2,232 nucleotides of DNA from Escherichia coli (GTDB lineage: Bacteria > Pseudomonadota > Gammaproteobacteria > Enterobacterales > Enterobacteriaceae), in the NCBI RefSeq assembly GCF_003334335.1, contig NZ_QOWQ01000092.1. One strand, written 5' to 3'. The stretch's first letter is position 1, and each line of letters starts with the position of its first letter. Below, piece by piece: positions 1 to 2,232 of the stretch. The position numbers were made by a program, and so were the translations under genes. Below the pieces are notes generated by a model that was not told where the DNA came from, made no database searches, and saw only the letters and a program-made list of their open reading frames with translations.

Positions 1-2232
1 GGAGGCTCACACCTTTGACTCTGTGAAATTTATTCTGACCACCGCTCTCGCCGGTGGTCTGCTGGCTGTTCCCCTGCAGATCAAAAACATTCAGCAGAAC
101 GGGATCACACCAGAAGATATCAGCAAGGAAATTAACGGGTATTACTGCTGTTTTTATACTGCCTTTTTCCTTATGGCGTGTTCTGCATGCGCACCATTGA
201 TCGCGTTACAGTACGATATTTCACCGTCACTGATGTGGTGGGGCGGGTTGTTGTACTGGCTGGCTGCATTAGTGACGCTGCTATGGGCGGCCAGCCAAAT
301 CCAGGCGCTGAAAAAACTGACCTGTGCCATCAGCCAGACACTGGAAGAACAACCGGTGCTCAACAGTAAATCGTGGCTGACCAGTTTGCAAAACGATTAC
401 AGCCTTCCTGACTCACTGACGGAGCGCATCTGGCTGACGCTCATTTCTCAACGGATTTCCCGGGGAGAGCTGAGGGAATTTGAACTGGCAGACGGAAACT
501 GGTTACTGAACAATGCCTGGTATGAAAGAAACATGGCAGGGTTTAACGAACAGTTGAAAGAGAACCTGTCATTCACACCTGATGAACTGAAAACGCTCTT
601 CCGGAACCGCCTGAATTTATCACCGGAAGCGAATGACGATTTTCTCGATCGTTGCCTGGACGGCGGTGACTGGTATCCCTTTTCAGAAGGTCGCCGTTTT
701 GTATCATTCCATCACGTGGATGAGCTTCGTATCTGTGCCTCCTGCGGGCTGACAGAAGTACATCATGCCCCGGAAAATCATAAGCCGGATCCGGAATGGT
801 ACTGCTCCTCTCTTTGTCGCGAAACAGAAACACTGTGTCAGGAAATTTATGAACGCCCTTACAACAGCTTTATTTCCGATGCAACGGCGAATGGTCTGAT
901 TCTCATGAAACTGCCGGAAACCTGGAGTACAAATGAGAAAATGTTTGCTTCCGGAGGGCAGGGACATGGGTTTGCCGCTGAACGGGGAAACCATATTGTC
1001 GACAGAGTCCGTCTGAAAAACGCACGGATCCTCGGTGATAATAATGCCAGAAATGGAGCAGACAGACTGGTCAGCGGAACAGAAATCCAGACGAAATATT
1101 GTTCAACTGCAGCCCGTAGCGTCGGTGCGGCATTCGACGGACAAAACGGACAGTATCGTTACATGGGAAATAATGGCCCCATGCAACTGGAAGTCCCCCG
1201 TGATCAGTATGCCGGCGCTGTTGAAACCATGAGGAATAAGATCCGCGAAGGTAAAGTACCCGGTGTAACCGATCCCGCAGAAGCATCCCGGCTGATTCGT
1301 CGGGGACATCTGACTTATACTCAGGCCCGTAATATCACCCGGTTCGGGACCATCGAATCGGTCACTTATGATATTGCCGAGGGTTCGGTTGTCAGTCTGG
1401 CGGCCGGAGGGATCAGTTTTGCCCTGACGGCATCGGTCTTCTGGCTCAGCACCGGCGATCGCGATGCTGCCCTGCAGACAGCTGCTGTCCAGGCAGGAAA
1501 AACCTTCACCCGCACACTGGCTGTCTACGTCACAACCCAGCAACTCCACCGGCTCAGTGTTGTTCAGGGTATGCTGAAGCACATTGATTTTTCGACTGCC
1601 AGCCCGACTGTCCGACTGGCTCTTCAGAAGGGGACCGGTGCAGGAAATATCAGTGCCCTGAACAAAGTGATGAAGGGTACGCTGGTGACATCTCTGGCAC
1701 TGGTAGCTGTCACAACCGGCCCTGACATGATCAAAATGTTGCGGGGACGGATCTCCGGTACGCAGTTCATCAGGAATCTTGCCGTGGCATCTTCCGGTGT
1801 GGCAGGTGGTGCTGTCGGGTCAGTGGCGGGCGGAATACTGTTCAGTCCACTGGGACCATTTGGTGCACTGACAGGGCGTGTGGTTGGCGGTGTTCTGGGG
1901 GGAATGATTGCCTCCGCTGTATCAGGAAAAATTGCCGGAGCGCTGGTTGAAGAAGATCGCGTCAAAATTCTGGCAATGATTCAGGAGCAGGTGACATGGC
2001 TTGCCGGCAGTTTCCTGCTGACCGGACATGAGATTGAAAATCTGAACGAGAATCTGGCCCGTGTTATCGATCAGAATGCTCTGGAGATCATTTTCGCCGC
2101 CGGTATACAACAACGGGCCGCGACCAATATGTTAATCAAACCACTGGTGGTCAGTATCATCAGGCAACGCCCCGTCATGGAATATGATGCATCCCATCTC
2201 GGCAATATGGTTAACCGACTGGAAGAAGCATT
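1..2232 (+). CDS. Large uncharacterized membrane protein, internal fragment (partial at 3' end, probably also at 5' end); codon phase begins at nt 2
   Basis: Manual translation of the frame starting at nt 2 gives 743 consecutive sense codons (nt 2-2230) with no stop; the other two + frames hit stops within the first 26 nt (TGA at 16-18 and 24-26). Leu is mostly CTG and the translation has protein-like features (hydrophobic helix-length segments, Cys4 motif, GxxxG repeats). Translation begins EAHTFDSVKFILTTALAGGLLAVPLQI... and ends ...HLGNMVNRLEEA. Product identity is unassigned. Confidence 0.85.
29..292 (+). other. N-terminal cluster of three predicted transmembrane helices (aa 10-27, 46-69, 77-97 of the window translation)
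   Basis: Three uncharged hydrophobic stretches of 18-24 residues: FILTTALAGGLLAVPLQI, GYYCCFYTAFFLMACSACAPLIAL, LMWWGGLLYWLAALVTLLWAA, separated by short polar loops; the third is followed by the positive residues KK (aa 104-105). Judged by eye, no predictor run. Confidence 0.6.
734..817 (+). other. Putative zinc-ribbon-like Cys4 motif (C245-x2-C248 ... C268-x3-C272) with flanking His residues
   Basis: Translation reads HHVDELRICASCGLTEVHHAPENHKPDPEWYCSSLCRETETLC: two Cys pairs 19 residues apart, His at aa 237, 238, 254, 255, 260, and a fifth Cys at aa 279. The spacing matches a small zinc-ribbon knuckle pair; metal binding is inferred, not shown. Confidence 0.45.
1388..1447 (+). other. Internal hydrophobic, Gly/Ala-rich segment (aa 463-482), possible transmembrane or membrane-inserting helix
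   Basis: VVSLAAGGISFALTASVFWL is uncharged and helix-length, followed by the polar STGDRD. A shorter hydrophobic stretch LVTSLALVAVTTG follows at aa 561-573 (nt 1682-1720). Confidence 0.4.
1778..1948 (+). other. Glycine-zipper (tandem GxxxG) hydrophobic region, aa 593-649; candidate membrane hairpin or oligomerisation module
   Basis: LAVASSGVAGGAVGSVAGGILFSPLGPFGALTGRVVGGVLGGMIASAVSGKIAGALV contains G602-x3-G606-x3-G610, G621-x3-G625-x3-G629-x3-G633, G630-x3-G634 and G642-x3-G646. About 55 residues carry only two charged side chains (R626, K643), with a Pro-Leu-Gly-Pro turn-like centre at aa 616-619. Confidence 0.55.

Follow-up and report, generated by a model that had tools for sequence, protein, structure and literature searches.

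The translation start of yeeR in Escherichia coli and an apparent start at the edge of a sequence window

Where does the gene that fills a 2,232-nt stretch of Escherichia coli contig NZ_QOWQ01000092.1 begin? The whole of this stretch, referred to here as the window, opens with the letters ggaggctcacacctttgactctGTGaaa, in which a GGAGG that is Shine-Dalgarno (SD)-like by sequence only occupies nt 1-5 and an in-frame GTG occupies nt 23-25, with a gap of 17 nt (nt 6-22) between them; these and the other window features described below lie on the + strand. The frame of nt 2 is free of stop codons over all 2232 nt, and the other two + frames are full of stops. Translation from the GTG would give (M)KFILTTALAGGLL, and further in-frame ATGs occur at nt 173-175 (Met146) and nt 233-235 (Met166). 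The initial annotation had recorded all of these elements and the 17-nt spacing as they are present, had taken the gene most likely to begin upstream, and had kept the GGAGG/GTG pair as a weak alternative. The window proved to lie within yeeR, and we are close to certain that the start of yeeR is an ATG upstream of the window, that the GGAGG and the GTG are internal codons, and that the ambiguity comes from the window cut alone.

The gene and its upstream start

Complete E. coli genomes were searched with the window by megablast, and matches of at least 99% identity were found in 1750 complete records, many of them at 100% and nearly all chromosomal. In two chromosomes with 100% identity (L001 and L002) the window corresponds to positions 8001-10232 of an 18-kb stretch, with the gene order agn43 (encoding the Ag43 adhesin), yeeR, irmA, DUF905, DUF932, an antirestriction gene, yeeS, yeeT, cbeA and cbtA. 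The RefSeq coding sequence spanning the window in L001 runs from 7738 to 10254 and encodes an 838-aa “hypothetical protein” (WP_001315618.1). The gene is yeeR in its full-length form and follows agn43 directly in a CP4-44-like island; window nt 2-2232 represent internal coding sequence, codons 89-831 and 2 nt of codon 832 of the 838, with the yeeR ATG 262 nt before nt 1 and the yeeR stop 22 nt after nt 2232. A precomputed match to PF27347.1 (YeeR_C) is carried by P0001, the cluster representative with 99% identity, and by nearly all homologues.

In the 100%-identical genomes, the frame remains open for 96 codons upstream of the window, 88 of them coding down from the ATG and a further eight reaching back to the nearest in-frame stop, a TAA at L001 7711-7713. 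Ahead of the ATG at L001 7738, a GGAG at 7729-7732 leaves a 5-nt spacer, and the best duplex of the upstream 20 nt with the 3′ end of the 16S rRNA has a free energy (dG) of −6.1 kcal/mol. Inspection of the upstream sequence had been set beforehand as a test of the GTG in the window, and the outcome, a frame that is open and coding-like well beyond the window start, speaks against that GTG: neither a closed frame nor non-coding sequence is found just upstream of it. Other start-type codons between the TAA and the window comprise a GTG at L001 7732 and five internal TTG or ATG codons (codons 21, 37, 57, 73 and 78), and the latter fall inside hydrophobic helices.

The GTG at 7732, two codons before the ATG, would give a protein beginning M-T-M-L-Q-I rather than M-L-Q-I, and in its favour it is in frame, lies past the TAA and is listed by a mechanical open reading frame (ORF) finder as the earliest start-type codon. 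This codon (7732-7734) overlaps the GGAG, however, leaving no spacer, and the dG in its own upstream 20 nt is just −2.6 kcal/mol; moreover, homologues begin at a Met aligned with ATG 7738, the three distant loci described below have no in-frame start above that position, and RefSeq annotates the ATG in every record examined, K-12 yeeR being annotated with the same start. That the GTG at 7732 is the true start is thus highly improbable.

The homologues were drawn from a search of approximately 5.8 billion proteins with the 838-aa query, which returned 414 relatives; the full-length ones are of about 805-880 aa, cover 94-100% of the query and derive from other Enterobacteriaceae, Serratia, Methylomonas, Pseudomonas, Shewanella, Herbaspirillum, Cupriavidus, Dyella, Stenotrophomonas and others. 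The N-termini were compared in alignments of 18 and of 86 sequences, the 86 full-length homologues sharing 30-68% identity with YeeR, and a consensus MLQxIxGLI (MxQxIxGxI in the larger set) is common to Enterobacteriaceae, Pseudomonas, Shewanella and Burkholderiales. The N-terminus lies within one column of E. coli Met1 in 79/86 homologues and in none of them at the column of the window GTG; all 86 carry residues N-terminal of the Val96 column, between 51 and 121 of them (median 94). The comparison of homologue N-termini, a check that had been proposed for this start, therefore agrees with an upstream origin of the gene. At three distant loci (an Enterobacteriaceae locus with 68% identity, Pseudomonas nunensis with 46-48% and Shewanella algae with 42-43%) no in-frame start-type codon lies between the upstream stop and the homologous ATG, and in each of these an SD-like match stands upstream of that ATG.

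Comparison among E. coli alleles gave a corresponding picture at closer range. Three diverged alleles (O104:H4 2009EL-2071, GPEC403-625 and 82.0312) are 92-97% identical over the start region, and their synonymous/non-synonymous differences across codons 1-88 number 8/2, 6/3 and 8/0; mostly synonymous change of this kind points to the region upstream of the window being coding. The ATG and the GGAG of the yeeR start are unchanged in all five alleles compared, and the upstream part of the 120-nt agn43-yeeR spacer varies among alleles through substitutions and a 2-nt indel.

Codon 96 and the GGAGG at the window edge

Within yeeR, the GGAGG of window nt 1-5 comprises the third base of Leu88 (ctG), the whole of Glu89 (GAG) and the first base of Ala90 (Gct), and the GTG of nt 23-25, the in-frame start-type codon nearest to it, encodes Val96 at the N-terminal end of hydrophobic helix 4 and is no start codon. 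The usual SD-to-start spacing for initiation in E. coli is 5-10 nt. No such element lies at that distance from the GTG, the GGAGG being 17 nt away, and the duplex dG against the 16S rRNA 3′ end in positions −20 to −1 of the GTG is a weak −2.0 kcal/mol because the GGAGG is too distant, outside the functional spacing. Counts of the motifs were also at expectation: GGAGG occurs five times on both strands of the window against 4.25 ± 2.0 expected from dinucleotide-preserving shuffles, and GGAGG-N(5-20)-GTG occurs once against 1.14 expected by chance, so that these elements are no commoner than chance predicts.

Codon 96 is GTA, a synonymous and non-initiating valine codon, in all three diverged alleles, which are annotated as intact 838-codon coding sequences. 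In complete E. coli records, a 40-nt probe centred on codon 96 matched exactly in its GTA form in 550 (including Nissle 1917) and in its GTG form in 1656. The GTG is accordingly conserved neither among alleles nor among orthologues: the Val96 column in the 86 homologues holds L in 29, I in 11, M in 10, W in 9, A in 7, G in 7, Y in 5, V in 4, F in 3 and S in 1. The presence of GTA in other alleles indicates that codon 96 behaves as an ordinary valine codon. Together with the spacing and the low duplex score, it upholds the earlier ranking of the GGAGG/GTG pair as a weak alternative only.

Might the GTG nonetheless act as a second, internal start in the alleles that have it? Initiation there would yield, alongside full-length YeeR (91.5 kDa), a 743-residue isoform of 81.2 kDa in which hydrophobic helices 1-3 are missing. 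The GGAGG is a perfect SD core that all five E. coli alleles compared have in common, translation may start at GTG codons, and the product would begin just before a hydrophobic helix. Against this stand the 17-nt spacing, beyond the usual range, the chance frequency of the motif pair, the non-initiating GTA in 550 records with no sign of a gene defect, and the lack of conservation in homologues of both the Val96-aligned residue and the Glu89/Ala90 codons; the persistence of GGAGG within E. coli is explained by coding sequence in alleles that are more than 92% identical. Genuine internal starts in E. coli, such as those for IF2-beta in infB, ClpB-79 in clpB and the short form of CheA in cheA, are conserved sites with a functionally spaced SD and demonstrated products. 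The yeeR GTG resembles them in being in frame inside a longer ORF after a purine-rich tract, but differs in its 17-nt spacing, in being GTA in a quarter of records and in having no known product. We regard internal initiation at codon 96 as very unlikely, and hold out equally little prospect for its more specific form, in which a low-efficiency start would produce an 81-kDa isoform with another topology or localisation and the GTA alleles would have lost that isoform.

The GGAGG could also be read without any initiation, as a selected SD-like element that would pause ribosomes between helix 3 and helix 4 and so aid membrane insertion. It does lie in a short loop (residues 83-92) between two hydrophobic helices, and its invariance in the five E. 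coli alleles would fit such a role; SD-like pausing in vivo is disputed in the field. But the motif is at chance frequency, and the homologue residues vary, with E, D, P, G, S or a gap in the Glu89 column and A, P, S, G or a gap in the Ala90 column, which gives no sign of selection on GGAGG beyond coding constraint in near-identical alleles. We consider a selected pause site here very unlikely. For none of the three alternatives (the GTG at codon 96, the GTG at 7732 and the pause site) is there positive support.

A few points weigh against an exclusive start at ATG 7738. A strain-specific rearrangement just upstream is conceivable, though the numbers of records with at least 99% identity are nearly equal for the whole window (1750) and for 500 nt spanning the start (1721). 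The GTG form of codon 96 is the majority allele, with its 1656 exact records; a literature search for YeeR N-terminal proteomics or initiation-site profiling returned unrelated papers only; and, judged from sequence alone, internal initiation besides the main start would be formally possible.

The upstream start at ATG 7738 would account for the observations as follows. The window opens in the middle of yeeR, and translation would start at the ATG 262 nt upstream, served by its GGAG and 5-nt spacer, so that ribosomes would pass the GGAGG (codons 88-90) and the GTG (codon 96) during elongation; the apparent start would then be a window edge that happens to fall beside a chance GGAGG within coding sequence. 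We infer that ribosomes do not initiate at GTG96. The result is an ordinary one, already annotated, and its significance is very little: it confirms the current RefSeq and K-12 start annotation of yeeR, and the “start” at the window edge should not be annotated. It also illustrates that a window cut inside a gene can produce an SD-plus-start pair by chance.

YeeR architecture and the K-12 truncation

Hydropathy (Kyte-Doolittle, 19-residue window) shows peaks at residues 4-22, 29-47 and 60-81, all encoded upstream of the window, with further peaks at 95-113 and 139-157 and a Trp- and Gly-rich helix from about residue 163. An AlphaFold2 model of YeeR built on the 86 sequences (mean pLDDT 78.5) has helices at 2-57, 61-82, 93-120, 125-159 and 163-204, and residues 1-92 are modelled at pLDDT 73-93 as part of the same helical membrane domain as the window-encoded helices. 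The helix that follows the GTG had been taken for the first hydrophobic helix of the protein; it is in fact the fourth, with three more encoded in the 88 upstream codons. Its hydrophobic residues 95-113 (SVKFILTTALAGGLLAVPL; nt 20-76) have a Kyte-Doolittle mean of 1.66, and the corresponding model helix (93-120, nt 14-97) has a pLDDT of about 90. By the model, a protein starting at GTG96 would lack half of the N-terminal membrane domain.

The fifth helix, seen in both hydropathy and model, has its hydrophobic residues 139-157 at nt 152-208 and contains Met146, the first of the two downstream ATGs (nt 173-175; dG +2.2 kcal/mol); the next model helix, residues 163-204 (nt 224-349; the sixth helix plus an extension), contains Met166 (nt 233-235; dG +0.3 kcal/mol). 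These ATGs had been considered poor start candidates, as they have no purine-rich tract upstream and fall inside helices, and both arguments hold: neither is preceded by an SD-like sequence, Met146 lies in the hydropathy peak 139-157 and in model helix 125-159, and Met166 lies at the beginning of model helix 163-204.

From alignment and model, YeeR can be divided into a membrane domain at the N-terminus, with about six helices (residues 1-204), a region of mixed alpha/beta structure (residues 207-330), a strongly conserved core at about residues 400-540 with many invariant residues and the motifs GGQGHGFAAE, NGADR, IQTKYC and EVPxDQ, and a helical C-terminal part that includes a poorly modelled glycine-rich segment (residues 686-736). 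Four cysteines, C333, C336, C356 and C360 (window nt 734-827; CxxC...CxxxC), are invariant in the 86 homologues, as is a fifth, C367 (nt 836-838). The cysteines suggest a putative zinc-binding knuckle between a winged-helix-like region and the conserved core.

The glycine-rich segment (GVAGGAVGSVAGGILFSPLGPFGALTGRVVGGVLGGMIASAVSG; window nt 2057-2209) is glycine-zipper-like, with invariant glycines and a pLDDT of 23-49, and it may be a membrane-inserting or oligomerising element. It is also the source of weak matches to phage tape-measure proteins and C19orf12. In a local Pfam-A copy without PF27347 the sole match was C19orf12, which was not significant, and PHROGs gave just a weak tape-measure match to this segment, with a PDB sequence search giving a similar outcome; we treat the PHROGs and PDB matches as compositional. 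A search of NCBIfam found no family for YeeR.

Members of the PF27347 family (about 805-880 aa, from Gamma- and Betaproteobacteria and often named “inner membrane protein YeeR”) share with the window protein the N-terminal hydrophobic domain, the four invariant cysteines, a core of the form GGQGHGFAAE...NGADR...IQTKYC...EVPxDQ and the glycine-rich C-terminal segment, and no feature distinguishes the window protein from the family. The family is without known function, its E. coli member being referred to as the “uncharacterized YeeR protein” (PMC4807369) and figuring in the y-ome list (PMC11551758). YeeR is a widespread and conserved membrane protein, about 840 residues long and encoded on the same transcript as the phase-variable adhesin Ag43, without known function or solved structural relative.

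The K-12 YeeR (b2001, WP_001350525.1, 510 aa), a y-ome gene product of the CP4-44 prophage, is like the window gene encoded directly downstream of agn43 and begins at the same ATG. In a K-12-type locus (L003), codons 1-186 have the identical nucleotide sequence, and collinearity extends as far as codon 507 (window nt 1258). Unlike the intact 838-codon form of the window, the K-12 gene is a truncation: a deletion of approximately 3.37 kb (L001 9259-12628) has taken out the last 331 yeeR codons, irmA and the DUF905, DUF932 and antirestriction genes, so that codon 507 now runs into the 5′ end of yeeS and the protein ends in three foreign residues (EER). The truncation of yeeR and the absence of irmA in K-12 are published (PMC6480617; PMC4807369).

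The distribution of yeeR in E. coli is uneven. It was found in 2582 of the 5426 complete genomes, at up to five places per genome; it is sometimes interrupted by insertion sequences, such as IS600 in strain RM13322, and one frameshifted copy (L007) sits downstream of cah, not agn43.

A lead to PDC-M09B and the agn43-yeeR-irmA transcript

In hmmscan, YeeR residues 434-497 and 576-731 weakly match the PADLOC profiles for PDC-M09B, the B protein of the candidate defence system PDC-M09, with E-values of 4.3e-5 and 4.8e-6 over partial stretches. The proteins have in common the motif D-x-[LM]-[VI]-x-G-x-x-[IV]-Q-[ST]-K-[YF] ... [VI]-P-K-D, also written ADRLVxGxxIQTKY...EVPKD, and the matching YeeR region (residues 434-731) is encoded by window nt 1300-2190. 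At one Enterobacteriaceae island (L008 2761-8523), a YeeR homologue is located 37 nt downstream of genes for a WYL regulator, PDC-M09A and PDC-M09B, beside dndB-E; there PDC-M09A and PDC-M09B already form a complete pair, and the YeeR gene is an additional, third one. A pairwise BLASTP comparison of YeeR and PDC-M09B was not significant (E 0.68), and hhalign gave a probability of 24% and an E-value of 8e-4 over 61 columns only. The two also differ in extent, as PDC-M09B is of about 480 aa and the matches, covering YeeR 434-731, include no counterpart of the first ~430 YeeR residues; at the E. coli yeeR locus, no PDC-M09A neighbour is found, with agn43 upstream and irmA downstream. We present this weak resemblance of the YeeR core and C-terminal part to PDC-M09B as a lead, not a finding, in which homology is unproven.

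Transcription of yeeR has been addressed in the literature. In an EC958 oxyR mutant background, RT-PCR and 5′ RACE identified a single agn43-yeeR-irmA transcript that starts upstream of agn43 (PMC4807369), and hence the mRNA spans the N-terminal part of yeeR in its entirety; a separate irmA promoter, downstream of yeeR, is described for strain 042 (PMC9431211). No known transcript begins near the window edge. Taking co-transcription from these reports, a polycistronic mRNA from the agn43 promoter would carry yeeR. In a consensus scan between the agn43 stop and the yeeR ATG we found neither a terminator-like site nor one resembling a + strand promoter. The possibility that yeeR has its own promoter was set aside, as none was found between agn43 and the ATG and the one intragenic + strand site at L001 8132-8160 (window nt 132-160) is at chance, with two such sites against 0.9 expected in the region.

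A strong hairpin with the sequence GGTCCCGGTC-atcat-GATCGGGACC is located at L001 7638-7662, 21 nt past the agn43 stop and 339-363 nt before window nt 1. It lacks a T-run and received no terminator call; its stem contains a G-U pair in some alleles and a G-C pair in others (GATC versus GACC). Folding of the 146-nt spacer region gives −47.7 kcal/mol (z = −2.5). The hairpin could help to stabilise or process the agn43-yeeR-irmA mRNA. Near the yeeR start a search of Rfam gave nothing, and in the agn43 leader (L001 4243-4479) it gave a match to the IS102/IsrC small RNA (73 bits, E 3e-11), which is unrelated to the start of yeeR.

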